This document shows positions 6,511-45,916 of a stretch of 64,000 nucleotides of DNA, one piece after another. The position numbers and the translations under genes are program-made. Under the pieces are notes generated by a model. The model was not told where the DNA came from, did no database searches, and saw only the letters and a program-made list of their open reading frames with translations. How positions within the stretch are numbered: position 1 is the first letter of the stretch; each line of letters begins with the position of its first letter. The stretch is taken from positions 1 through 64,000 of IMG/VR virus record IMGVR_UViG_3300042010_000129. The stretch is one strand, 5' to 3'. Source of the stretch: a virus. Taxonomy: Duplodnaviria > Caudoviricetes.

Positions 6511-6821
6511 TAAATATTCCCCGCTGTTGCATGTTTGGTGCGCAGTGCAATTGTCAGCGTGCGCTTTTTCAATTCACCTTGACGTAGCAACTCAAGCTGT
6601 TCGAGTTTTGCATTAATGCTTTTCTCGGTGGCAATTGTCCACAAGAATACATTTGTCAGCAGCAAATCCCCACCGGGCAAGCCACGCGCCCCAGCGCCCC
6701 ATGTACCTACACCGAATTCGAAGTGCAGGGCCTTGTCTACTTTGTCTTCCATGTTGTACAGGCTTTGCAGTGCGGCTGTCGTTTCTTCATCCGCGTACTT
6801 TTCGTTTGGTTGGTTCGACAC
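6510..6821 (-). CDS. Hypothetical protein, 103 aa
   Basis: GTG start; in the primase operon. Confidence 0.7.
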   Translation of the reverse strand: MSNQPNEKYADEETTAALQSLYNMEDKVDKALHFEFGVGTWGAGARGLPGGDLLLTNVFLWTIATEKSINAKLEQLELLRQGELKKRTLTIALRTKHATAGNI

Positions 6822-7908
6822 TTTTTGTGATCCTCTTCGGTTTCTTTTCCATGGACAGCTTCGGGAATTCCTTGCTGGTTTTCTCGATAGCCTTAACTTT
6901 CTTCACTTTCTTTTTCTTCGGCTTTTCTTCTTGGCCGTAGGCGTAGACAATATCCTTCACCTTGTCTATCAGCTTCTGCGGTGCGGCGTCCGGGTCAAGC
7001 TTGATCAGATTGCCTTCGTCGTCATACTTGCACGGCAATTTCAGTTCTTCGAAATCCAGCTGACCGTCACAGAAACTTTCAACCAATCGGGCCATCTGCT
7101 TACCGGCTTTGTCGTTATCCGTCAGCGTGTAAACCTTCGTGATGCCGAGGCCTTGCAGCAGCATCAATTTACGCGGGCCAAACATTTTCGAACCGAGAAT
7201 CGCACAGGCCGGGATTTTATTCAGCACCAGACGCAGCCAGTCACGCGGGCCTTCACACAGCACCACCGCTTTGCAACCGAACAAATCGTACTTGCGTATA
7301 AAATCGTAACCGAGCAAACCGTAGTCCATTACCCAATCACCTTTGGTGTTGATATAGGACAATCCGGTTTCCTGTTTTTCCATCAACGCTTTAACGCCGC
7401 CCTTGTACCGGCCATTAATGTAAATAGGAAGAGCAAGCAAAACGTCTTCGCGTTGATCCTCACTGAACATGTGACCATTCACGCGTTCGATCATTGTGCC
7501 GGGATATCCGCGCCAGTCTTTTTCCTTGGGCCACGGAATTACCGCGCCGCCCAATTCTTCGTAGAGTCGCCCGATGGAACGGTTATTCGTATTTTCTCTT
7601 TCTTTCTTTTTCCGGTTGTATCGTGCCCGGTCGCCAGCAGTTGATCCGTTGAAGAATTGCCATTTTTTCAACTGCTGTAAATCAAGCTTAGCCGCCAGCT
7701 TGTTCCACGGCCCCGATTCGCCACACGACCAACAGTTAAACGTTCCTACAGGCACCCGCGCTTCTAGGCTGATGTTAATGCCGAGCGATGGGTTACTGTC
7801 TTCGTGGAACGGACAAACGATTTCGAACGTGGTTGTTTTGAATCTGGTTGGGCCTTGGATTTTTTCTAGTTCGGCCATGATGACCGTGAAGGCATCATCA
7901 AGTTTCAT
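6787..7908 (-). CDS. dnaG: DNA primase (CHC2 zinc finger plus TOPRIM)
   Basis: CPFHEDSNPS...FNCWSCG zinc ribbon; LCEGPRD and LTDNDKAG TOPRIM motifs; Lys-rich C-tail. Confidence 0.9.
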   Translation of the reverse strand: MKLDDAFTVIMAELEKIQGPTRFKTTTFEIVCPFHEDSNPSLGINISLEARVPVGTFNCWSCGESGPWNKLAAKLDLQQLKKWQFFNGSTAGDRARYNRKKKERENTNNRSIGRLYEELGGAVIPWPKEKDWRGYPGTMIERVNGHMFSEDQREDVLLALPIYINGRYKGGVKALMEKQETGLSYINTKGDWVMDYGLLGYDFIRKYDLFGCKAVVLCEGPRDWLRLVLNKIPACAILGSKMFGPRKLMLLQGLGITKVYTLTDNDKAGKQMARLVESFCDGQLDFEELKLPCKYDDEGNLIKLDPDAAPQKLIDKVKDIVYAYGQEEKPKKKKVKKVKAIEKTSKEFPKLSMEKKPKRITKSVEPTKRKVRG

Positions 7909-7965: not shown

Positions 7966-9132
7966 GTGTTTAAGGATATTGCGAGCCGTATAAAAAAGGA
8001 AAGACGGTCAGTGCATATCGAATCGCACTTAGGCCAAGTCTATGCGCAGATAATGGATAGCAACATTATCACGCCGAATGGTCGCGGGCCTGAATATCGC
8101 CCGTCCTCCTTTCCAATTTGTCCAATCCTCGTTCACATGCAGTTTTTGCAAGCGGCGGAAAACGGATTCTATCAATCGAACATGTCAGCAGGCGGCGGGT
8201 ATTTCACCACGGTCGGAACTGCTGCGCACGAAAACATTCAGTATTACATGGGGCAGACACGGAAAGTTTTCGGTGATTGGAAATGCCGGAACAGCAAGTG
8301 TCAGAAGCACCACGACGCCCGCGATCTTTACGACGAAAAAGGCGTGATGTATCGCAAAGGAAAACTGACGACAAAAAACACCACGAACAACCTGTGCCCT
8401 GAATGCGGCATCGCTTGTGAGTACGTGGAAAAGTGCATTGATTACTTCGGCCTGAAAGGTCACATCGACTGCATTTATGAAATGCCTGATGGCACGTACT
8501 GGGTTCTCGACTACAAGACGACCACCAAAGGTCTGATGGAAGGGAACAAACTTCCGAAGCGTGAACACTTGATGCAGGTTCCGACATACTGCTACGTGTT
8601 GGAAAAGAAATACAAAATGAAAATCTCCGGATTCTCATTGCTGTACCTCAGTCGCGACAACCCGTATCAGTTCAAAGAGAAAGCCGAACGCTGGGGCGAG
8701 CGCCGTCGCAACGAAACGAAAAAACTGATCATCCAGCAGAAGAAAATCTACCGGTCTGCTGTGAACAGTTTTATTCAGAACAAACCAGAACTCGCGATCA
8801 AGTGCAAACCGTGCAAAGCGCCAGACGATTACGAACGTTTGATGCCCGCATATGAGCCGTGCCCGATGGAAAAGGTCTGCTTTAATAAACGCAGCCTGAC
8901 CGACAACATGCTGCACGCTCTGCAACCGGAAAAACTGATCAAGGTACTGAACATTACCAACAACATGGAAAACTATGTTGAACCGGAAGTGCTTTCGGTG
9001 CTGAAGAAACTCTGCGACAAGCCGAAGAAATTGAAAAAGAAATCCAGCGCGTCTGATACCGACCTCAAACTGCCGTCGGCCAAGGCGAAAAAGAAAAAGA
9101 CTTCCAAACCTTTGAGGTTGACCAAGAAATGA
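7966..9132 (+). CDS. Cas4/RecB-like PD-(D/E)xK exonuclease
   Basis: RPSSFPICP, GTAAHENIQ, GHIDCIYE..VLDYKT, QVPTY, CKPC..CPMEKVC (Fe-S staple pattern); GTG start uncertain. Confidence 0.8.
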   Translation: MFKDIASRIKKERRSVHIESHLGQVYAQIMDSNIITPNGRGPEYRPSSFPICPILVHMQFLQAAENGFYQSNMSAGGGYFTTVGTAAHENIQYYMGQTRKVFGDWKCRNSKCQKHHDARDLYDEKGVMYRKGKLTTKNTTNNLCPECGIACEYVEKCIDYFGLKGHIDCIYEMPDGTYWVLDYKTTTKGLMEGNKLPKREHLMQVPTYCYVLEKKYKMKISGFSLLYLSRDNPYQFKEKAERWGERRRNETKKLIIQQKKIYRSAVNSFIQNKPELAIKCKPCKAPDDYERLMPAYEPCPMEKVCFNKRSLTDNMLHALQPEKLIKVLNITNNMENYVEPEVLSVLKKLCDKPKKLKKKSSASDTDLKLPSAKAKKKKTSKPLRLTKK

Positions 9133-9824
9133 AAATCACCATTAGTGTGAAACCGAAAGTGGTAGCGACCGCCGGGACATACAGCGCACCCGACATGGGC
9201 GCCGCCGAACAGATGCAATACTCTGACGAAGAACTGGCCGAGCGCGACCGGGAAGAAAAAGCCCGTGAGGAAGTAGCGGCAGAAGAGGAACGGAAAAAAG
9301 CTGCTGAGAAACAGAAAAAAGACGCAGCAAAAGCTCCGCAAACTCCGAAAGAAAGTGGCGAGTCCGGCACCGATGGCGACAAATCGGATGATGATTCCGA
9401 AGATGAAGAGGATGAAGAATCTGACGACGATGATTCGGAAGACGACGACTCTGAAGAAAGCGACGACGATGACGACTCCGAGGATGATGATTCCGAAGAG
9501 GAAGAGGACGACGATGACGACGGCGACGAAGAGGCCACCGCAGCGAGCAAGCTGCCGTATCCGGAAGCACAAACGAATCGGAAAGCTCCTGATTTGATTC
9601 CGGCAGAAACAGCGGAAAAAGTCGTTGATCCTGAAGTGCAAAAGGAACAGGACGAAATCCGTGAAAGCGAAGCCGCGAAAAGCCGTCCGCTTTCCAAAGA
9701 CGATCCGAACAACAAAGCGGCACAAGGTAAAAAGCTGGATAAAGACAACGGGAATACTTTGGTTGCTACGGCATCCTCGGAACTCGGCCTGCCTTATCCG
9801 GATGTGAAATTGCGCAATCGTTAA
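9129..9824 (+). CDS. Acidic low-complexity protein, possible internal head/scaffold protein
   Basis: D/E/S-rich core flanked by VVATAG, EATAAS, LVATAS motifs. Confidence 0.8.
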   Translation: MKITISVKPKVVATAGTYSAPDMGAAEQMQYSDEELAERDREEKAREEVAAEEERKKAAEKQKKDAAKAPQTPKESGESGTDGDKSDDDSEDEEDEESDDDDSEDDDSEESDDDDDSEDDDSEEEEDDDDDGDEEATAASKLPYPEAQTNRKAPDLIPAETAEKVVDPEVQKEQDEIRESEAAKSRPLSKDDPNNKAAQGKKLDKDNGNTLVATASSELGLPYPDVKLRNR

Positions 9825-11497: not shown

Positions 11498-13603
11498 ATG
11501 GCTGAAAAGAAAGTGAAACCCAAGGCGAAGGCTGATCCAGCCGTCGAAGGGAAAAAGCTCAAGAAAACGAAAGTTGCTGAAGGCGTGGAAAAAACCACCA
11601 AAAAGAAATCAGCATCGCAGGAAGATTTCACGATCCACGAAGGTCTAGCGGGTATCCGTGCGAAACCTTCCATGTACCTTGGCGAGCAAGGCGCGCCGAT
11701 GGCTTACCGCTGCCTGAAAGAAGGCGTGGATAACTGCTACGACGAACACATTGCCGGTCGCAACAAAGTAATCGAAGTTATTCTGGATTACGACGCCGGT
11801 TGCTACATCGTGGCTGACCAAGCGGGCGGCATTCCTACCGATTTCATGAAGCTGAAATCTGGTGAGAAAATTTCGATCATGACCGCCGCGTATACCAAAA
11901 CGCACGCAGGCGCAAAATTCAACGACAAGGCTTATAAAACTTCGGCAGGTACTCACGGTATCGGTATGTCCGCAGTTAACGCCGTGTCTGAGCGCATGCG
12001 TGTGTGGACAACGTACAACGGCAAGCTGGCGACACAAACGTACAGCAAAGGCGAAATCGTTCCGGGGCCGAAAAAAGATTTGCATCCGTACATCGTCAAG
12101 GCGGTGGACAAGGATGTAATGGGCCACCTGAAAGACAAGCTGCAAAAATACGGAACCATCGTCGCAATCGAACTGGATCAGACCGTCGTTTCCATCAACG
12201 CGAAAGCCGGTAAACTTCCGAAGACTTTCGAAGTTGCAGAACCGAACGCCGCTGAAGTTGGAATGTGGCTGAACAACGTTGCGATGCTCAACCCCGGTCT
12301 GGAAATTCGTTTCTCCACGATCCGCAAGGGCAAACGCAAAGACGAACTTTTCCTGAACAAAAAGGATCTGGCGTTCGTACCGAAAAACATGTGTGAATTG
12401 CGCGACCTCACACCGCAGGGCAAGACGTTCATTTTCAAAAGCGACAACATCACGTGCGCGCTGGTTTGGTCTGACCACACCGACGCCGATAACTTCCTGA
12501 CATTCGTGAACACTTCGCCAACCGTAGACGGTGGCTGGCACGTAACGGGTTTCACCGCTGCACTTTCCAAAGCCGTGAAAAAACACGTGCCGGAAAAGAA
12601 ACCAGCGAAAGGAAAAGGCAAGTCGCAAGGTTACACCGGCTCCGACCTGCTGATCGGCCTGACGGGCATGTTCGACTGGCGTATGCACGGCGCTGCGTAC
12701 ACGTCGCAGGTAAAAGACAAACTCAGTTCGAAAGTGGACAAAGAAGTCGAAGACATTATGTTCCCGGCTTTCGACAAATATTTCACCGACAACCCGAAAG
12801 TAGCGAAAGACATTATCAAGCGCGCCTTGATCATGAACAAAGGCCGTGAAGAATTGGCCGCTGTCGTGAAATCCATGGCCGACGTGAAGAAACAAGGCAA
12901 GGGCACACTGCCTGTCAAACTCGCACAGTCGCCACACTGCAAAGCGTGGGAACGTGAATTGTTTGTGGTGGAAGGGGATTCGGCAAAAGGCCCATCGGTT
13001 GACGCCCGCGACACGCACTATCAGGAAGTTTTGGCCGCTGGTGGTAAACCACTCAACGCCCTGAAAGCGCCGATTGCAAAAATCATCACGCACAAAGATA
13101 TTTCGGCATTCCTGATTGCCATCGGCGTCGATCTGAAATCGCTTGACCCGAAAGCAGAACGCCCGAAACTCAGCACCGAAAAATTGCGGATCAAATCCGT
13201 TCTGTTGCTGGTTGACCCTGACCCGGACGGCGGTCACATTGCGGTTCTTTATCTGGCCGTGATTTATCGTTTGCTTCCGGATCTGTTCAAAGAAGGCCGC
13301 GTGTTCTGCGTACAGGCGCCGCTTTATGCTGCGCTGGATTCGAAAGGTGCGCTTTACGGTGGCATGACCCACGCCGAGTGCCGTGGTGCTGCGCCGAAAT
13401 CTGTAAAGGATCAGGACATTGTGCGTATCAAAGGTTGGGGGGAAGTTGGCCCGGAATACATCGGCCCGATTGCTTTCGATCCAAAATATCGCAAGCTGAT
13501 TCAAATCAACCCGTTCGCATCTGCTGCTGACGAACAGTGGTTCCGCGCCGTAGTTTCTGAAGACGCTGTGAACCGCCGTAAACTTCTCGGCCTTGAGGAT
13601 TAA
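11498..13603 (+). CDS. gyrB: Type II DNA topoisomerase subunit B (GyrB/ParE-like)
   Basis: GHKL ATPase motifs (EGVDNCYDE, DQAGGIP, HAGAKF, GTHGIG); TOPRIM VEGDSA and DPDPDG. Confidence 0.95.
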   Translation: MAEKKVKPKAKADPAVEGKKLKKTKVAEGVEKTTKKKSASQEDFTIHEGLAGIRAKPSMYLGEQGAPMAYRCLKEGVDNCYDEHIAGRNKVIEVILDYDAGCYIVADQAGGIPTDFMKLKSGEKISIMTAAYTKTHAGAKFNDKAYKTSAGTHGIGMSAVNAVSERMRVWTTYNGKLATQTYSKGEIVPGPKKDLHPYIVKAVDKDVMGHLKDKLQKYGTIVAIELDQTVVSINAKAGKLPKTFEVAEPNAAEVGMWLNNVAMLNPGLEIRFSTIRKGKRKDELFLNKKDLAFVPKNMCELRDLTPQGKTFIFKSDNITCALVWSDHTDADNFLTFVNTSPTVDGGWHVTGFTAALSKAVKKHVPEKKPAKGKGKSQGYTGSDLLIGLTGMFDWRMHGAAYTSQVKDKLSSKVDKEVEDIMFPAFDKYFTDNPKVAKDIIKRALIMNKGREELAAVVKSMADVKKQGKGTLPVKLAQSPHCKAWERELFVVEGDSAKGPSVDARDTHYQEVLAAGGKPLNALKAPIAKIITHKDISAFLIAIGVDLKSLDPKAERPKLSTEKLRIKSVLLLVDPDPDGGHIAVLYLAVIYRLLPDLFKEGRVFCVQAPLYAALDSKGALYGGMTHAECRGAAPKSVKDQDIVRIKGWGEVGPEYIGPIAFDPKYRKLIQINPFASAADEQWFRAVVSEDAVNRRKLLGLED

Positions 13604-13909: not shown

Positions 13910-15502
13910 ATGGCGAAGGTAAAAACGAAAGAAGTAGCGAAGGTTAAGAAATCTTCGCTCACGAAAATGAGCAAGACGGAAGTAGCGAAATCGCCGGTGA
14001 TTAAATTCGTCACCGTCGCACGCGAAACCAAAATGCAAACCATCAACGAATTTTCTGATGGCGCCCTGCATATCTACGGTTCCTATGTGGTGGAAGATCG
14101 GGCCGTTCCCGACTTCCGCGATGGTCTGAAACCAGTTCACCGCGCCGTGTTGTGGGCACTCGATGGCCTCGGTCTGCACCACCACAAAGGTTTCAAGAAA
14201 TCGGCGCGTACAGTCGGTGACGCAATCGGTAAATATCACCCGCACGGTGACAGCGCCTGTTATGGCGCAATGGTGACGATTGCAAACAGCAACCCGCCGC
14301 TGGTATGGGGCCAAGGTGGCTGGGGCAAACCGGATGGCACGACCGCATCCGCGTATCGTTATACCGAAGCAAAGAAATCGAAATTTGCTGATACCTTTTT
14401 GCTCGATCAGCAATATCTGAAAGTTGTTCCGATGGAAAACAACTTTTCGAACGATGAAAAACTTCCGCTGTATCTGCCTGCACTGCTGCCGACTCTGCTT
14501 TTCCTTACATCGACGCCGCCCCCGGCCTACGGTGTGAAAGTCGGCAACCCTGCGTTCTCTGTCGCCACGGTTTCGAAAGTCGTGGTCGATATGCTCAACG
14601 GCAAAACGTACACCGCGAAGAAATTGGCGGAAACGTTGAAAATTGTTCACCCGTTCGGCTGCATCGACGTTTCGTCTGACGCGGCAATCGAAGACCTCAT
14701 GGCGACCGGTAAAGGTTCCGTGCAGTACATGCCGCTGATTGATTACGATATCGAAAAGCGCATCATTCGAATTCGTTCGTTCTGTCCGGGCACGCTGACC
14801 GGCGAAGAGGGTTTGGACAAAGCGTTGCAAAAGCTGGCGAACATCGACGGCGTGAAAAACGCGTCGAATACTTCCGGCAAAAAGAACAAACACGCTGGCC
14901 CATACGGCGCGCATCTGGAAGTGGCTTGTCCGAAAAACATGGACGAAGAATCTTTCGATGAAGTCTGCGCGAAAGTAGACAAAGCAGTGAAAAGTTCTGT
15001 CGCTTACCGACTGGGCATCACGATCCGGAAATCCGGGGAAGAAACCAACCGCTTCAAATACGTGAACTACGTCGAATATTTCACGGCGTGGATCAAGTAC
15101 CGGGTCAAGCTCGAAGAACGTCTGATCGACTTCCTGCTGGCGAAGGCTGCGCGTGAACTGCACTTGAACGAAGTGTATTTGTACGCGGTGCAGAACCGTG
15201 AAAAATTGCTGAAAGCGTTGCCGAAAGTTCTGGCGTCGAAAACCCCGGCTGAAGTGCTGGCAAAGACTCTGAAAATGCCGGTGCCTGATGCGGAAATCAT
15301 CCTTGAACGGAAAGTGCGCCAATTGGCAGCGCTGGAAGAATCCGACCTGAAGGCCAAGATCAAAGGCATCAAGGGCGAAATCAAGGATTTGAAATCCGAC
15401 CAGAAAGAACCGGGCAAGCGTGCGGCGCGTGACACAACCGAGCGCGTGAAAAACTACCTGAAGAAACCTGACCCGACTGTTTCGGGTATCAAGGTTGAGT
15501 GA
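13910..15502 (+). CDS. gyrA: Type II DNA topoisomerase subunit A (GyrA/ParC-like, no C-terminal pinwheel)
   Basis: DRAVPDFRDGLKPVHR, KKSARTVGDAIGKYHPHGD, SAYRYTE (catalytic Tyr); only 530 aa. Confidence 0.95.
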   Translation: MAKVKTKEVAKVKKSSLTKMSKTEVAKSPVIKFVTVARETKMQTINEFSDGALHIYGSYVVEDRAVPDFRDGLKPVHRAVLWALDGLGLHHHKGFKKSARTVGDAIGKYHPHGDSACYGAMVTIANSNPPLVWGQGGWGKPDGTTASAYRYTEAKKSKFADTFLLDQQYLKVVPMENNFSNDEKLPLYLPALLPTLLFLTSTPPPAYGVKVGNPAFSVATVSKVVVDMLNGKTYTAKKLAETLKIVHPFGCIDVSSDAAIEDLMATGKGSVQYMPLIDYDIEKRIIRIRSFCPGTLTGEEGLDKALQKLANIDGVKNASNTSGKKNKHAGPYGAHLEVACPKNMDEESFDEVCAKVDKAVKSSVAYRLGITIRKSGEETNRFKYVNYVEYFTAWIKYRVKLEERLIDFLLAKAARELHLNEVYLYAVQNREKLLKALPKVLASKTPAEVLAKTLKMPVPDAEIILERKVRQLAALEESDLKAKIKGIKGEIKDLKSDQKEPGKRAARDTTERVKNYLKKPDPTVSGIKVE

Positions 15503-19821: not shown

Positions 19822-21717
19822 TTGGAAATGACTATTCTTAAAGGCCAGACCGTAAACGTTAACCACGGCAAGAAAGGCGTATTCAAAGAGACGGTGAAAA
19901 CCGTTCTGCGTAATGGCACCGTTCGCACCGAGGAAGGTTCCGAGTTCAACACCGCCGACATGTACAACAAAGGCAAAGGCAAATTCGTTGACCTGAAAGG
20001 CGGCGTCGTGAAGAAAACCACCGCTGCCGCTGCACCTGCTGCAAAAGCCGAACGTCCTGCACCGCCGACCATCACTTTCAAAGAACTGGAAGAGAAAGCG
20101 CGCAAAATCAACGGCATCGAAATCGAAAGCCTGAAGCGCAAAGAAGGCACCGTGGTTCTGGCTGACGGTTCGACCGTTGCAATCGGTGACATTTCCCGCA
20201 AGGGCAAAGGTTACGGTGCCGACGTTGTGACCCCTGCGCCGAAAGCTGGCAAGAAAACCGCCGCTGTTAAAGCTGCAACCGAAAAAGCCCCTGTGAAAAC
20301 TTCCGGCGTTAAGCCAGCTGCAAAAACTGCTGCCCCGGCAAAAACTGGCGGCGCAGTGAAGAAAGTCAAAGCGGCCCCGGCTGACGACAACGCATTCGAC
20401 GAAGGCGCGCTGTATGGCCCGGCTGGTCAATACGAAACTTCCGACGTTCGCGGCAAGGTGATCGACTTCAACGGCGACGACGTGAAAGTGGTTAAAACCT
20501 TTTCGTCCGGTCGTTGCGTTCTGGAAAGCGGCGACGAATTCCAAGCCGACGAAATTCGCAAACGTCATGATGGCCGTTTCTGCGTGTACTCCGATGAATA
20601 CATCGACGAACTGAAAGAACTGCACGAACAAGCCAACACCCGTGCGAAGGCAATTCAAAAGGCCAAAGACACGCCGAAGCCTGTAACGTCGCGCAGCTTC
20701 AAAAAGAACGTGACTCAAGTTCTGGTCGGCAAGAAAATGCAAACCGTTGCACGCGTTCTGACCACTGGCGTTGTCGTCATGGATTCCGGGTTGCGCATTG
20801 CAATCGCTGACATTGAACAGCAAGGCGCAAAACTGGTTTACGGCGGTGCTGCATCGACCAACCAGAAAGCCGGTGGCGCACTTCCGAAAACCCGCGAAGT
20901 TCCGCCGTTCGAGAAAAAGATCGTTCGCGTTTCTGAATTCGACGACGACACCGCGCAAGACATTTGCGATTTGCTCGAAGAAAACGTGCGCAAAATCATG
21001 GCGGGCGAATACGACGTTCAACTGGTTTCGTCGTTCGCCGGTCGCGGCACCGAATTCTGCACCGTTGCATTCAGCTTCGCGATTGCCGACGCTGACCCGG
21101 CGCGCATTCAGGAAATGGTTGCACGTCAACGCGCTGAAAACTTCGCTGATGATGAAAACAGCGATACCGACGCGCACCAGCTGACTCCGAATGCCGACGA
21201 CATTCCTGAAGAGGAAGAAGAGCAGGAAGAGGAAGAGGAACAGGAAGAAGAGGAAGAGCAGGAAGAGGAAGAAGAACAGGAAGAGGAAGAGGAACAGGAA
21301 GAGGAAGAGGAACAGGAAGAGGAAGAAGAACTGGAAGAGGAAGAACTGGAAGAGGAAGAGCAAGAAGATTTCCCCGACAGCCAGACTTTCGCACCTGCTG
21401 AAACTTCGTTCCCTATCGACACCTCGGAACTGGTCGGTGATGCTTCGGCCCGTATGGCGAAAATCGTTCCTACTGCCAAATATCAAGGCGCAATGCGTAA
21501 AGCCGCTTTGGCATGGTATGAATCGCAAGATGCGTACACCAATTTCGGTTATGCCATTGAACCGGGTTCGACTGTCGAAGATGCAGGTCAAACCTACCTG
21601 TTCATCGGCCTGCGCAATGATGTTGTCGGCCTGATCAACGTTGCGAGCGAAACCGTTCGTTCGGTGGACTTCGAAAAATTCGTTGAGATTTGCGAAGCCA
21701 ACGGCATCGAAATCTAA
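19822..21717 (+). CDS. Multidomain protein, 631 aa: four SH3/KOW-like repeats, K/A linkers, EEEEEQ tract
   Basis: GGAG SD; repeated V..v...G.vv...G..f...DI units; acidic repeat. Confidence 0.9.
   Translation: MEMTILKGQTVNVNHGKKGVFKETVKTVLRNGTVRTEEGSEFNTADMYNKGKGKFVDLKGGVVKKTTAAAAPAAKAERPAPPTITFKELEEKARKINGIEIESLKRKEGTVVLADGSTVAIGDISRKGKGYGADVVTPAPKAGKKTAAVKAATEKAPVKTSGVKPAAKTAAPAKTGGAVKKVKAAPADDNAFDEGALYGPAGQYETSDVRGKVIDFNGDDVKVVKTFSSGRCVLESGDEFQADEIRKRHDGRFCVYSDEYIDELKELHEQANTRAKAIQKAKDTPKPVTSRSFKKNVTQVLVGKKMQTVARVLTTGVVVMDSGLRIAIADIEQQGAKLVYGGAASTNQKAGGALPKTREVPPFEKKIVRVSEFDDDTAQDICDLLEENVRKIMAGEYDVQLVSSFAGRGTEFCTVAFSFAIADADPARIQEMVARQRAENFADDENSDTDAHQLTPNADDIPEEEEEQEEEEEQEEEEEQEEEEEQEEEEEQEEEEEQEEEEELEEEELEEEEQEDFPDSQTFAPAETSFPIDTSELVGDASARMAKIVPTAKYQGAMRKAALAWYESQDAYTNFGYAIEPGSTVEDAGQTYLFIGLRNDVVGLINVASETVRSVDFEKFVEICEANGIEI
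21208..21363 (+). repeat. Coding tandem repeat (EEEEEQ)x6 plus three degenerate units
   Basis: 18-nt units such as gaagaggaagaagagcag. Confidence 0.9.
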
Positions 21718-26612: not shown

Positions 26613-26660
26613 AACTGTAAATACACTGTACAAGATGTGCAGTGCAGAAAACTGTAAATC
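26613..26660 (+). promoter_or_regulatory. Tandem AACTGTAAAT motifs (26613-26623, 26650-26660)
   Basis: Two copies 37 nt apart upstream of the poly-Glu gene. Confidence 0.65.
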
Positions 26661-26698
26661 TCTTTCAGCAACATCAATCAATATATCTGGAGTTATTC

Positions 26699-27229
26699 AT
26701 GGCTAAGCCAGCAAAAAAATCCGCCGCCAAATCCAAGCCAGCACCGAAGAGCAAGAAAAAGGCAGTGCCGGAAATCTCCGCTGACGACCTGAACCTGATC
26801 AACATGGATGTGCTGTCGCAAATCCTGATCGCGTTCCAAGACAAAGGCTTCGAAACCATCGAAGACGTGATCGGCGCCATCCAGCAACTGATCGAAAGCG
26901 AAGAGGAAGAGGAAGAGGAAGAGGAAGAGGAAGAGGAAGAGGAAGAGGAAGAGGAAGAGGAAGAGGAAGAGGAAGAGGAAGAGGAAGAAGAGGAAGAGGA
27001 AGAGGAAGAGGAAGAGGAAGAGGAAGAGGAAGAGGAAGAGGAAGAAGAGGAAGAGGAAGAAGAGGAAGAAGAGGAAGAGGAAGAGGAAGAGGAAGAGGAA
27101 GAGGAAGAGGAAGAGGAAGAGGAAGAGGAAGAAGAGGAAGAGGAAGAGGAAGAGGAAGAAGAGGAAGAGGAAGAGGAAGAGGAAGAGGAAGAGGAAGAAG
27201 AGGAAGAGGAAGAAGACGACGACGAATAA
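26699..27229 (+). CDS. Poly-glutamate protein, 176 aa (basic N-tip, helical core, E105 tail)
   Basis: GGAG SD before MAKPAKKS; 105 consecutive Glu codons; terminator follows. Confidence 0.85.
   Translation: MAKPAKKSAAKSKPAPKSKKKAVPEISADDLNLINMDVLSQILIAFQDKGFETIEDVIGAIQQLIESEEEEEEEEEEEEEEEEEEEEEEEEEEEEEEEEEEEEEEEEEEEEEEEEEEEEEEEEEEEEEEEEEEEEEEEEEEEEEEEEEEEEEEEEEEEEEEEEEEEEEEEEEDDDE
26900..27214 (+). repeat. (GAAGAG)n purine-only coding microsatellite
   Basis: 315 nt of only GAA/GAG codons with occasional GAAGAAGAG interruptions. Confidence 0.95.
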
Positions 27230-35516: not shown

Positions 35517-36773
35517 ATGGCGACCGCCGTTTTTAAAGGCATGGGCAGCATCCGCACCAACAGTGGCAAGGGTGATTCGCTCCGCTTGGACGAAGTTGTT
35601 GATATCATCCAGTGGCCGAAAAACAAATATTTCCTGTTCCGCATTTTGCCGATCATGCCGCTGCAAGTGCGTCAGGTCTGGATCAAACTGTGGGCCGGTG
35701 GCAAGGGCAAAGAAAAACGCGAAGTGAACATTCCGCGTTACGCTATCGACTTCGATCCGAACGATCCGGAAACCCCGAAAAAAGGCGTGAAGTGCCCGTA
35801 CATGGCGCTGGCCGACAAGTTCAAAGGCCAGAAAGAAAAGCCGGTGCGTGCATCCGACTTCTGGTTGTTCAACGTGATCGACCGTGACATGCAGGAAGAA
35901 GGCCCGCCGCGTAAAGCGTCGAAGCCAACCAAGGAAGAAAAGAATTCCGGTTTCAAGGATATCAATTCTGAAACTTGGACTCCGGTTCGCGTTGCCCGTC
36001 TGACCATGACTTCGATCAACCGACTGCAAGAATTGTCGGAAGAAAACAAAATCAAGTCGAAGAAAACCGGCAAAACCGCGCAGTACGACGTATCCGATGC
36101 GAAGTTCGGTTTCGATACCAAACTGAAATTCAAACCGGACGCAGCGGGCACCGACAAATATACCATCGACAAAGCGGACGGCCCTACTCCGCTGAGCGAC
36201 GAAGAGCAAGGCTATCTGACGTGGAACCTCACTGAAGAACTTCTGGACGCCACCGGTCGCATGACCGAAAAGGCTGCGAAGGAAGACGTCAAGCGTATGG
36301 AAATCATCGGCGGCGAAGAACTCGACGATGACGACGATGAAGACGAAGACGAAAAGCCGAAGAAAAAGAAAGGCAAATCCACTTCGCTCGACGACGATGA
36401 CGACGAAGACGAAAAGCCGAAGAAAAAGAAAAAGAAATCTTCCATCGACGATGACGATGATGAAGACGAAAAACCGAAAAAGAAAAAGAAGTCCAAGTCC
36501 ATCGACGACGATGATGACGAAGACGAAAAGCCGAAGAAAAAGAAAAAGTCTTCGGACAAAGACGCCAAGTCTTCCAAGGTGAAAAAGAAGTCGAAGTCGG
36601 ACGACGATGACGAAGACGAAAAGCCGAAGAAGAAAAAGAAAGCCAAGGAAGAAGAAGCTCCGAAGAAAAAGAAAAAATCTTCGGACAAGGAAGAGAAAGG
36701 CGGCGCCAAAAAGAAAGTGAAGAAAGCTGACAAGAAAGGCAGCGGCAAGAAAAAGAACGCGTGGGATGACTAA
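35517..36773 (+). CDS. gp32-like single-stranded DNA-binding protein with block-charged tail
   Basis: FRILP, KCP, FNVIDR and D..FGFD..LKF...YT pattern of phage OB-fold SSBs; directly upstream of the recombinase; acidic-aromatic C-tip AWDD. Confidence 0.65.
   Translation: MATAVFKGMGSIRTNSGKGDSLRLDEVVDIIQWPKNKYFLFRILPIMPLQVRQVWIKLWAGGKGKEKREVNIPRYAIDFDPNDPETPKKGVKCPYMALADKFKGQKEKPVRASDFWLFNVIDRDMQEEGPPRKASKPTKEEKNSGFKDINSETWTPVRVARLTMTSINRLQELSEENKIKSKKTGKTAQYDVSDAKFGFDTKLKFKPDAAGTDKYTIDKADGPTPLSDEEQGYLTWNLTEELLDATGRMTEKAAKEDVKRMEIIGGEELDDDDDEDEDEKPKKKKGKSTSLDDDDDEDEKPKKKKKKSSIDDDDDEDEKPKKKKKSKSIDDDDDEDEKPKKKKKSSDKDAKSSKVKKKSKSDDDDEDEKPKKKKKAKEEEAPKKKKKSSDKEEKGGAKKKVKKADKKGSGKKKNAWDD
36324..36647 (+). 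repeat. Five DDDDEDEKPKKKKK units in the SSB tail
   Basis: Near-identical gacgaagacgaaaagccgaagaaaaagaa units. Confidence 0.9.
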
Positions 36774-36840
36774 TCGGTAACTGCCGACTGGGCCTAGATT
36801 CTTAGGCCCACTTCCCTGATCTACCTGCTGTGGAGAATGC

Positions 36841-38403
36841 ATGGCAAAAACCGCCGTAAAGACCAAAAAGCTCGACCTTTCCGAAAAGGTTCTGAAGACT
36901 TCCAAGTCGAAAGTTCCAGCCGTCGTTGAGAAAAAGACTTCCAAGTCGAAAGCTCCGGCAGTGAAAGGCTCTAAGAGCAAGGATGTAGCCGTCGCGTCTG
37001 CAAAGTCCGACAAATTTGTCTTCAACCCTTACGCATCATTCGAAGACGAAATTGATAACATGGAAAAAAAGGTCGGCCTGACCTCCATGTCTGTCAACGA
37101 AAAAGAAGACCGATTGGGAACAGGCAGTCTCTGTCTCGATCTGCAAATGGCTGGTGGCCTTCTGGCCGGTGGCTGGTACACCTTCTACGGTGCGGAACAG
37201 TCGTGTAAAACCACGCTCGCCACAACCGTGATGGGTTCCATTGTTCGTAAAGCAGATTTCTTGGGGAAAGCGTTTTTCTTCGACTACGAAGGTTCGTTCT
37301 CCGCAGAATATGCGAACAACATGTGGAAATATAACGGTGGCGGTTCTGCCGGTACTGTTGAGCAGGTTTTCGGCCTGCAAGGTAAAGACGGCGAGTGGAT
37401 TATTCGCCCGCGTATTCGTAACTACGCGCCAGCAGTTGGCGAAGACTTTTTCGATGCGCTGGCTAGCACACTGAAAAAGCTTCCGTCTGTTCTGAAACTC
37501 GATGGTGATTTCTTCTACATTTACGAAAACACCAAAGCAAATCAGAAGCTGACCAAGGGTCACTACGACGTTAAATATTTCAAGAAGACCAACAAGTTCA
37601 AAGTCCCGGCGCCTCACGGTTTGCCGCAGGCTGTGTTCCTTGTGGACTCCTACCCGGCAATGCTTTCGCGTCGTGCAGATGACAGCGACGAAGGTAAAGA
37701 CGGTTTGGCCTCGCAAGCGCGTATGTTCTCTGACGGGATCAAACGTGTTAAAGGCCGCATGAAAGAAAAACGCGTTCTGGTTCTCGGCATCAACCAATTG
37801 CGTTCTGTTCCGATGGCGATGTACGGCCCGACCGAACAGGAACCTTGCGGTCAAGCGCTGAAATATTTCTCTGACGCTCGTTTCCGTATGTCTCCGATTG
37901 CGATTCCGCACGCGAAAGGCATGATGGAAGAAGAGCCGTCGATCAGCGGTAACGGTGTTGATACCTACCGTTACATCAAATGCCACGCATTCAAAAATAA
38001 ACTCGGTGGCCCGCAAAAATCCAACATGATCATGCGTTTGTATGTGTCGAACGAAGACGGCGAAGGCCTCGGTTTCGACCGCGTGTGGGATACGTGGATG
38101 TACTTGAAAGAAACTGGTCAGATTTCCGGCCAGCGCAACAAAATGAAATTCGCAGAAGGTACACCGTTCGCAGGTCACACCCTGTCGTACATGGATCTGA
38201 AGAAATTGGTCGATGGCAAAAAAGAATTGATCAAATCTTGCTGCGAAAAAATGAAGGTCAAGCCGCTGCGTATTTACGAGTGGTGCCGCAAGCAAATCGA
38301 ATCCGGCAAGGGTTACGATTTGTACCTTGAGCAAATCAAAGCAACCCACACCAAAAAGGCAGCGAAAGCCGCAGCCAAAGGTGACGGAGAGGACGAAGAA
38401 TGA
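36841..38403 (+). CDS. recA: RecA/UvsX-like recombinase
   Basis: GTGSLCLDL..GG, YGAEQSCKTT (Walker A variant), FLVDS, ASQARMFS, INQLR, GQALKYFSDAR. Confidence 0.9.
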   Translation: MAKTAVKTKKLDLSEKVLKTSKSKVPAVVEKKTSKSKAPAVKGSKSKDVAVASAKSDKFVFNPYASFEDEIDNMEKKVGLTSMSVNEKEDRLGTGSLCLDLQMAGGLLAGGWYTFYGAEQSCKTTLATTVMGSIVRKADFLGKAFFFDYEGSFSAEYANNMWKYNGGGSAGTVEQVFGLQGKDGEWIIRPRIRNYAPAVGEDFFDALASTLKKLPSVLKLDGDFFYIYENTKANQKLTKGHYDVKYFKKTNKFKVPAPHGLPQAVFLVDSYPAMLSRRADDSDEGKDGLASQARMFSDGIKRVKGRMKEKRVLVLGINQLRSVPMAMYGPTEQEPCGQALKYFSDARFRMSPIAIPHAKGMMEEEPSISGNGVDTYRYIKCHAFKNKLGGPQKSNMIMRLYVSNEDGEGLGFDRVWDTWMYLKETGQISGQRNKMKFAEGTPFAGHTLSYMDLKKLVDGKKELIKSCCEKMKVKPLRIYEWCRKQIESGKGYDLYLEQIKATHTKKAAKAAAKGDGEDEE

Positions 38404-44401: not shown

Positions 44402-45916
44402 ATGCAGATTCACAGTCAGACCGCTGAACTCCGGGCGTTGCTAACAGTAACGACCAAAAAGATGAACGAAGAACAGCGAACACTGTGGCTCGGCAAACTC
44501 AACAAGGATCATTTCTTCACGCCGGTGATGCGACAAGCTTTCGAGCGAATCACATCGCTGGCGCGGAAGCGTTTCCAAATCGTCAGCTGGAAAAGTCTGA
44601 TTGAAGACCCAAGCCTCGACGAAGACATTCGCGATATTCTGGCGGAAACCAAGGAAAAACCTTGCGTCAAGAAATCGCAAATGCGGGAGACGCTGGAAAC
44701 TCTTGAAGAGTTCCGCAAAATTCGAGTCATGCGGGACGTTGCGAATCTTATTTATGAATCGCTCGAAGGCACGGCAGTTGATGCTGAAAACCTTCTGAAC
44801 CGCGTCCAGCAGAACATTACGAAAGCCACCGCCGCTAAGCATCAAGACGTTTCTTTTCTGCGCTTCGGTAAGGATGCAAACAGTCGCGAAGTAACCGACC
44901 GTATCTGTCGTAACGAAACCATGCCCCGGATTAAAACGGGCATGGCCGCTTACGATTTGGCGAACGGCGGGTTTCCGGATTCTGGCGTGGTGTTTTTGGC
45001 CGCGACAACTTCCGGTGGTAAATCGACAGTCGCGATGAACATTGCGCTGCACATGTTTTTGAATGAAAAGTTAAGCGTCTTCCGCGTCTCCCTCGAAATG
45101 CAGGAGATTCAAGAAACGCAGCGGATGTATTCTCACTTAACAGGCATTCCGCTCAAGCGGTTCAAGCATGCCGTGTTGACTGAGGATGACAAACGCAAAA
45201 TCCGCAAGGTCGAAAAGGATCTTGCAAAGCATGGTGAAAAGCACGGTATCCACCAGACGATCCACTGCCCGAAAGGCGGATTGTCCATGGAAGAAACTCT
45301 GCAACTCGCCAAGCCGTTTGGCTACAAAATCATCGTGATCGACTACATCGGTTTGTTGAACGAAGACAGCGGCAAAGATCAGTGGAAATCTCTGATGGAT
45401 GCGGCGCGTATCGCGAAGAACTACACGCAAGAAACTGGCGCCCTCGTTATCCTGCTTGCACAGTTGGACGACGAAAAAGAAAGCATGCGTTATTCCAAAG
45501 GTATGAAGGAACACGCCGACGTTGTAATCCAGTGGAACTACACCCGTCCGGAAAGTCGCGAAGTGCGCCTGATTCCAATGTTCGTTTCCAAAGACCGGGA
45601 CGGTGAAACAAACTTCGGTTACGACCTCGAAGAACGTTTCGATATCATGACTGTATTTAACCCCGGCACGCAAAACGGCGGATCGGGCGGAGGAAACCTT
45701 GAGTTCGAAGATGACGACGGAGACAAAAAGCCGAAAAAGAAAAAGCTTAAAGACGGGTCAAGCAAAAAGCTCAAAGACTCCGACGACAAGCCGAAAAAGC
45801 TCAAGAAAAAAGGAACCAAGTCACTCAAAGAAGAACTCAACCCCGGCAAAAAGAAAAAATCTAAATCCAGCACCAAATCCATCGGGTATGATGATGGGCC
45901 TGCCGCGCTCTCTTGA
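44402..45916 (+). CDS. dnaB: DnaB-like replicative helicase
   Basis: AATTSGGKST Walker A, VSLEM, IIVIDYIGLL Walker B, LAQL, ADVV; D/K-rich C-tail. Confidence 0.95.
   Translation: MQIHSQTAELRALLTVTTKKMNEEQRTLWLGKLNKDHFFTPVMRQAFERITSLARKRFQIVSWKSLIEDPSLDEDIRDILAETKEKPCVKKSQMRETLETLEEFRKIRVMRDVANLIYESLEGTAVDAENLLNRVQQNITKATAAKHQDVSFLRFGKDANSREVTDRICRNETMPRIKTGMAAYDLANGGFPDSGVVFLAATTSGGKSTVAMNIALHMFLNEKLSVFRVSLEMQEIQETQRMYSHLTGIPLKRFKHAVLTEDDKRKIRKVEKDLAKHGEKHGIHQTIHCPKGGLSMEETLQLAKPFGYKIIVIDYIGLLNEDSGKDQWKSLMDAARIAKNYTQETGALVILLAQLDDEKESMRYSKGMKEHADVVIQWNYTRPESREVRLIPMFVSKDRDGETNFGYDLEERFDIMTVFNPGTQNGGSGGGNLEFEDDDGDKKPKKKKLKDGSSKKLKDSDDKPKKLKKKGTKSLKEELNPGKKKKSKSSTKSIGYDDGPAALS

Follow-up and report, generated by a model that had tools for sequence, protein, structure and literature searches.

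A phage single-stranded DNA-binding protein with a predicted gp32-type core, a conserved tail of alternating charge blocks and a proposed role as a replisome hub

The stretch of viral DNA analysed here, positions 1 to 64,000 of the IMG/VR virus record IMGVR_UViG_3300042010_000129 (Duplodnaviria; Caudoviricetes) and hereafter called the window, encodes a single-stranded DNA (ssDNA)-binding protein (SSB) in which a core predicted to share the fold of phage T4 gp32 is followed by a long disordered tail in which acidic and Lys-rich blocks alternate. By fold, family and genomic context, the gene product is predicted to be the replication and recombination ssDNA-binding protein of the phage. For the tail we lean, with somewhat better than even confidence, towards the role of an enlarged gp32 A-domain or bacterial SSB linker-plus-tip, which would serve as a multivalent electrostatic hub for Lys-tailed replisome enzymes. 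The gene and its parts are as follows.

35517..36773, + strand: SSB gene, 418 residues (P0001), an open reading frame (ORF) matching phrog_15004, with orthologs annotated as SSB in phages HRDY3, Lu11 and PaBG
35517..35576, + strand: conserved flexible N-terminal peptide, residues 1-20, consensus FKGFGSIKTNSRNDS
35577..36311, + strand: gp32-type ssDNA-binding core of oligonucleotide/oligosaccharide-binding (OB) fold, residues 21-265, without the gp32 zinc site (AlphaFold2, Foldseek, VIA)
36312..36770, + strand: disordered block-polyampholyte tail, residues 266-418, 153 residues (charge statistics, AlphaFold2, family-wide pattern)
36324..36641, + strand: five [D/E]7-10-KPK4-6 units within the tail (regular-expression scan)
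36756..36770, + strand: aromatic-acidic C-terminal tip NAWDD, of the W/F-then-D/E type conserved in the Pseudomonas-phage clade

The initial annotation, made from the sequence without database searches, had called the protein an SSB, and its fold, its PHROG family and its gene context all bear this out. The protein matches PHROG 15004, “single strand DNA binding protein”, with E=1.7e-121, in an alignment of residues 4-377 to profile positions 3-395 of 421 that takes in much of the tail. In an AlphaFold2 model built on 33 relatives, residues 21-265 reach a predicted local distance difference test (pLDDT) score of ~90, and all significant Foldseek matches of the model in the PDB are gp32 (RB69 core, E=9.2e-6; T4 core, E=4.3e-5; probability 1.0). 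VIA, an independent all-against-all structural search, placed the model on T4 gp32 in the gp32-Dda-dT17 complex (8gme) with Z=10.5 over 188 residues at 4.1 Å and on RB69 gp32 with Z=9.6, the next entry scoring 4.1 and bacterial SSBs only ~3, and a language-model feature search likewise led to gp32 clusters (score 0.93). The alignment of the family profile with T4 gp32 by hhalign is weak (E=0.0027, probability 11%); it lines up PKxC..CPYC..YYxNAI of the family with ETC..SCPVC..SYWANI of gp32. The SSB has no Pfam match at E<=1, including the models for gp32 (PF08804) and bacterial SSB (PF00436), and a phmmer search of its core against PDB sequences gave no match. When the family profile was compared with the PDB, matches to glycinin, TFIIF, RPA43 and nucleoplasmin involved charged low-complexity regions only and were rejected as compositional. 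As modelled, the core is thus of gp32 type, in a sequence family that lies beyond the reach of the Pfam gp32 model; the family to which the protein belongs, phage SSBs with a gp32-like core, is annotated but uncharacterised. The first 20 residues, conserved in the 33 relatives and of low pLDDT, are by analogy a candidate equivalent of the N-terminal cooperativity segment of gp32.

Comparison of the zinc-ligand columns of gp32 across the family revealed that three of the four ligands are replaced in the window SSB, which has V54, A76, C93 and M96 at these positions (~35676-35804) and retains only the cysteine at C93. PaBG-like and more distant relatives possess H, C, C and C in the same columns, and the clade comprising Lu11, HRDY3 and the window has V/A/I, A/V/D, C and M/S/K. 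The zinc site, present in the wider family, has therefore been lost in this clade while the core stayed conserved.

The SSB gene lies between two genes that recur beside it in related phages:

33592..34605, + strand: phage sigma factor (Pfam, PHROG; gene order)
36841..38403, + strand: RecA/UvsX-like recombinase, 520 residues (PF00154, E=7e-20; phrog_97)

Sigma factor, SSB and RecA/UvsX follow one another in this order in HRDY3, Lu11, PaBG, NCTB, the Erwinia/Dickeya jumbo phages and metagenomic relatives. Identity over the SSB core is 90% with HRDY3, 76% with Lu11, 48% with PaBG and 36-42% with phage NCTB and the Erwinia/Dickeya jumbo phages. Judged by its sequence, the window comes from a Pseudomonas jumbo phage of the Lu11/HRDY3 type that is not nucleus-forming. 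We had considered a phage-nucleus (Chimalliviridae) phage as well; this was rejected, as tblastn searches with phiKZ gp54, gp39, gp55 and gp74 (chimallin, PhuZ and two pieces of RNA polymerase beta) gave no match in the complete HRDY3 genome or in the window (best E at least 0.5), with the phiKZ self-matches as positive control. HRDY3 and the window thus are without chimallin, PhuZ and the phiKZ-type RNA polymerase, and a sigma factor is encoded instead.

The tail itself begins at residue 266 and is predicted to be disordered throughout, with pLDDT of 40-54 and no secondary structure in the AlphaFold2 model. The ORF and a regular-expression scan agree with the initial annotation, which had described five acidic-then-lysine units plus further K blocks and an end in NAWDD: the [D/E]7-10-KPK4-6 units occupy residues 270-285, 292-307, 311-325, 330-344 and 362-375, four more runs of K3-5 follow them, and the protein terminates in KKKNAWDD. 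Its statement that the T4 gp32 tail is simply acidic is also correct, since the T4 record has 48 residues with 15 D/E and 3 K/R, unlike the tail found here, which contains 57 K+R and 54 D+E and is 73% charged with a net charge of +3. Charge segregation in the tail is far beyond chance: the statistic is 0.388 (kappa ~0.55), compared with 0.092 +/- 0.025 in composition-preserving shuffles of the tail (z=12), and none of 500 shuffles reached the observed value.

The tail had been treated at first as peculiar to one protein; this view did not survive comparison with its relatives, in which it proved to be an old, family-wide trait. An exhaustive search recovered 368 representative SSB clusters at E<=1e-3, and we surveyed the tails of the best 150 of these 368 representatives, which share 50% identity or less. 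A tail of at least 25 residues that starts acidic is found in 128 of the 150, with a median length of 156 residues, and 91 possess two or more blocks of each charge, acidic and basic (median z against shuffles, 11.9). The architecture is kept down to ~27-30% core identity, and the SSB tails of HRDY3, Lu11, PaBG, NCTB and Dickeya AD1 all alternate between acidic and basic. The window SSB and P0007 share 95% identity in the core but 64% in the tail, where their alignment has 17 indel columns, and tail length ranges from 135 to 164 residues across the nine relatives compared. The tail sequence thus drifts faster than the core while the block pattern is kept, which suggests a family trait under selection for pattern.

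Repeated codons of the GAY/AAR type could have produced such a tail by replication slippage, leaving neutral low-complexity sequence that is merely tolerated at a disordered terminus. Active slippage or duplication would fit the 57-nucleotide tandem repeat that Tandem Repeats Finder reports at 36330-36548 (3.8 copies, 82% matches) and the frequent indels between close relatives. We consider neutrality very improbable, however, as alternating blocks would not persist under neutral drift, while in this family the architecture recurs in 128 of 150 representatives at a length of ~150 residues, segregation is always far above shuffles and the tips are conserved. These tips fall into recognizable types: 19 of the 150 end in DDDIPF-like sequences (DFDDDIPF or DDDIPF), the canonical docking tip of bacterial SSBs, in a further 26 a hydrophobic last residue follows acidic ones, and the SSBs of the Pseudomonas-phage clade end in W/F followed by D/E. 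By analogy, NAWDD of the window SSB is a candidate SSB-Ct-like docking peptide.

Lys-rich extensions are found on six DNA-acting enzymes of the window, and the following five came from a scan of all its ORFs for K-rich segments:

6787..7908, - strand: DNA primase with a Lys-rich C-terminal tail (11 K in the best 25-residue segment)
7966..9132, + strand: PD-(D/E)XK (Cas4-like) nuclease with a Lys-rich C-terminal tail (K-rich segment scan)
11498..13603, + strand: GyrB-like subunit of topoisomerase II with a Lys-rich N-terminal extension (K-rich segment scan)
13910..15502, + strand: A-like subunit of topoisomerase II with a Lys-rich N-terminal extension (K-rich segment scan)
44402..45916, + strand: DnaB-like replicative helicase with a Lys-rich C-terminal tail after DDDGD (13 K in the best 25-residue segment)

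The RecA/UvsX-like recombinase was found by eye to carry a Lys-rich N-terminal extension of 60 residues with 17 K+R. A genome-wide test was run on HRDY3, the closest complete relative, with annotated coordinates, counting proteins with at least 8 Lys in a 25-residue segment within the first or last 80 residues. Such termini occur in 9 of 25 annotated DNA-acting proteins (helicase, RecA, SSB, topoisomerase II A, the GyrB-like subunit, nuclease, primase, clamp loader and a DNA polymerase piece) and in 7 of 386 other ORFs (Fisher p=2.1e-8), and the enrichment still stands at p=6e-5 when the threshold is raised to 10 Lys. By the same count none of 18 DNA-acting proteins of T4 qualifies (p=0.0036 vs HRDY3). 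The K-tailed proteins of which the initial annotation had spoken are therefore real, and most of them are replication and recombination enzymes. Across ten lineages, a basic N-terminal extension of RecA accompanies the charged-block SSB tail in nine, and the sole lineage without it, L017, is also the one whose SSB tail contains the fewest basic residues; the majority of metagenomic contigs did not extend far enough to be used in this probe.

At its other end, the RecA/UvsX protein of the window terminates in KKAAKAAAKGDGEDEE, where a short run of basic residues leads into an acidic tip (GDGEDEE), and this basic-then-acidic end is kept in HRDY3, Lu11, PaBG and NCTB (...DDEE or ...DDDDE). Inteins with LAGLIDADG homing endonuclease domains interrupt the SSB-adjacent RecA/UvsX of L017 (7062-10327), L021 (6402-9494) and L005 (4342-6801+); the 520-residue RecA of the window has no intein.

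Other low-complexity charged proteins are encoded in the window. A poly-Glu protein in the replication module (26642-27229, + strand) ends in ~105-110 consecutive Glu, and the adjoining gene (27370-27975, + strand; phrog_36478, unknown function) encodes a Lys-rich protein with PAKKSKKA-type repeats that ends in DFDEFED. Two acidic proteins, both without a PHROG or Pfam match, have (E5Q)n repeats at residues 448-527 (19822-21717, + strand) and an S/D/E-rich run at residues 72-147 (9129-9824, + strand). The K/R-rich ORF at 21191-21634 is only an alternative frame of the former.

We favour the hub role because the tails end in DDDIPF-like or W/F-D/E tips, because gp32 binds replisome partners, as seen in the solved gp32-Dda-dT17 complex (8gme), and because K-rich termini are found on DNA enzymes here and on none of the 18 T4 proteins. 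Each binding step in this proposal is modelled on gp32 or bacterial SSBs. The poly-Asp/Glu blocks would mimic ssDNA, fold back on the basic DNA cleft of the core and gate binding as the gp32 tail does; they would also present multiple docking points at which the Lys-rich extensions that the lineage has added to helicase, primase, both topoisomerase II subunits, clamp loader, nuclease and RecA/UvsX could bind electrostatically. The KPKKKK blocks would neutralise the tail and may contact DNA or the acidic blocks of adjoining SSB molecules, contacts that could add cooperativity and higher-order clustering on ssDNA. The aromatic-acidic end, NAWDD here and DDDIPF in relatives, would act as a specific SSB-Ct-like docking tip.

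Several observations weigh against this interpretation and the homology behind it. None of 107 diverse members of the SSB family matches PF08804 at E<=0.01, and together with the hhalign probability of 11% this means that homology to gp32 rests mainly on fold. Most relatives have strongly net acidic tails (median -29), whereas those of the window clade are near neutral (+3 to +7), so the K blocks may play different roles in different members of the family. The set of DNA-acting proteins used in the enrichment was chosen from annotation after the pattern had been seen in the window, and K-rich tails on DNA enzymes may have a simpler explanation in non-specific DNA affinity. As for the joint variation of RecA and SSB tail, lineage L021 has few basic SSB-tail residues and still has a basic RecA extension, and ten lineages with this mixed outcome are too small a sample to count as co-evolution.

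The simpler explanation can be extended to the SSB itself: its tail might be an intramolecular regulator and DNA tether that tunes on and off rates and recruits no partners, its Lys blocks holding duplex or ssDNA near the fork while its acidic blocks and DNA would be rivals for binding to the core and to the Lys blocks, and the K-tails of the enzymes would then be independent DNA-affinity handles. The enzymes with K-rich extensions do all act on DNA, a pattern conserved without sequence conservation fits a purely physico-chemical role, and two reports describe modulation of DNA binding at ss-ds junctions by the C-terminal domain of gp32 (bioRxiv 10.64898/2026.09.18.752737; PMC12424635). It would leave unexplained, however, the conserved aromatic-acidic or DDDIPF-like tips, which are protein-docking motifs in bacterial SSB, and the fact that in T4 a short, purely acidic tail suffices and K-tails are absent; we regard it as quite unlikely to be the whole account.

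A different use of the same charges would be phase separation driven by the block-charged tail, with the SSB as scaffold of a membrane-less replication condensate that takes up Lys-tailed clients. Being highly charged, near neutral and strongly blocky, the tail has the features of condensate-forming blocky polyampholyte disordered regions, and charge blockiness controls the phase separation of Ki-67 (PMC9106583). Droplets are formed in vitro by E. coli SSB (PMC7584906) and by T4 gp32, but those of gp32 needed 5% polyethylene glycol and none formed in plain buffer (PMC11951158). The enrichment of K-tails on replisome proteins and the poly-Glu and Lys-rich proteins encoded in the same module would suit such a condensate, and in a lineage without a chimallin shell any compartment would need another basis. 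On the other hand, coacervation that is purely electrostatic is weaker at the ionic strength of the cytoplasm, the mostly strongly net-negative tails of the relatives disfavour self-coacervation without a polycation partner, and we found no cytological report in the literature of a compartment in Lu11/PaBG-type infections. We therefore consider a condensate possible but unlikely.

Beyond the hub that we prefer for the tail, a wider and decidedly speculative reading would see a charge code in jumbo phages of the Lu11, PaBG and Alexandravirus type. The SSB tail would form a scaffold on ssDNA, Lys-rich extensions would serve as address tags of helicase, primase, topoisomerase, clamp loader, nuclease and RecA, and the conserved small poly-Glu and poly-Lys proteins of the same module would act as buffers or regulators, all within a membrane-less, electrostatically assembled replication factory. 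If true, such a code would be a replisome-organising principle in its own right for jumbo phages that form no nucleus, and a prokaryotic model for the charge-block selectivity so far studied in eukaryotic nuclei.

The immediate surroundings of the SSB gene include the signals from which it is presumably expressed and an apparently inserted gene:

35447..35458, + strand: phage promoter motif AAAACTGTAAAT, directly 5' of the SSB gene and in the same place in HRDY3 and Lu11
35503..35509, + strand: ribosome-binding site AGAGGAA, 7 nucleotides ahead of the ATG, evident in the sequence and shared with HRDY3 and Lu11

The Lu11 record annotates a motif of the AAAACTGTAAAT type as “putative middle/late promoter”, and its 10-nucleotide core, AACTGTAAAT, has 14 occurrences in the window where 0.06 would be expected. 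Its sites lie mostly on the + strand just 5' of genes (e.g. 16504, 22945, 24595, 24946, 25611, 26613, 26650, 34598, 35449, 41249 and 53255). Between the sigma factor and SSB genes, a 208-residue protein (34822-35448, + strand) matches PF25185, “Type I Thoeris inhibitor Tad3”, with E=4.7e-28; since HRDY3 and Lu11 have just an ORF of ~57 residues at this position, the Tad3-like gene looks like a lineage-specific anti-defence insertion. The SSB gene is also spanned by an antisense ORF of 557 residues (35352-37025, - strand). This ORF is spurious and arises from the low-complexity tail, whose GAY/AAR codons give F/L/S-rich sequence when read in antisense; as it is longer than the real gene, length-greedy gene callers can miss the SSB.

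Replication and repair in phages and bacteria are organised around SSB tails as hubs, and the choice of partners by disordered tails is under active study. The family described here, which comprises at least 368 protein clusters at 50% identity, is an ancient variant that occurs widely in nature and in which the putative hub is a block polyampholyte; in HRDY3 and the window phage many presumed partners bear matching Lys-rich tails, and T4, the reference system, has neither feature. Recognition of charge pattern, simple DNA affinity and condensation can be tested against one another, and relatives are cultivable, namely Lu11 on P. putida and PaBG on P. aeruginosa PAO1. In our coverage of the literature, which is incomplete, we found no paper on the family-wide block-polyampholyte tail, on DDDIPF tips attached to a gp32-type core or on a Lys-tailed jumbo-phage replisome.

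Among known systems, the charge-block regions of eukaryotic proteins (Ki-67; the nucleolar Treacle, Nopp140 and nucleolin type) resemble the tail in their alternating acidic and Lys-rich blocks and high blockiness, and in these regions blockiness tunes phase separation and selective partitioning (PMC9106583, PMC11996177). The proteins are unrelated, act in a nuclear context and are often switched by phosphorylation, so that the likeness is compositional only.

The E. coli SSB, an OB tetramer with a disordered linker and the tip DFDDDIPF, likewise has a disordered tail with an acidic/hydrophobic docking tip, of the DDDIPF type seen in 19 of the 150 relatives surveyed. It belongs to another OB family (the window SSB has no PF00436 match), and the tip NAWDD differs in the order of aromatic and acidic residues and has no IPF. 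The linker of E. coli SSB is rich in Gly, Gln and Pro and is not a charged block copolymer. Through its tail, E. coli SSB recruits partners, gains cooperativity and condenses in vitro (PMC7584906, PMC12143593).

The orthologs Lu11 gp176, HRDY3 XDJ15111 and PaBG gp117 (cores 76%, 90% and 48% identical), annotated as “single strand DNA binding protein” and uncharacterised, have the synteny, the block tail and a WDD(DE) end in common with the window SSB; they differ from it in the number and length of the blocks, and PaBG keeps the zinc ligands. In the PaBG genome paper, a search for “SSB” and “single-strand” led to no discussion of the SSB or its tail.

The gp32 proteins of T4 and RB69 (1gpc, 2a1k, 2atq, 8gme; PF08804) share with the window SSB the fold of the ssDNA-binding core, an organisation in three parts, with a short N-terminal peptide ahead of the OB core and a disordered C-terminal domain behind it, and a genomic role beside recombination and replication genes, and the relatives of the window SSB keep the His/Cys3 zinc-ligand pattern. 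The window SSB is set apart from gp32 by an identity of ~12%, by its lack of a PF08804 match, by the loss of the zinc site in its clade and by its tail, in which 153 residues of near-neutral alternation between poly-D/E and poly-K take the place of 48 residues of a simple acidic, Ser-rich kind.

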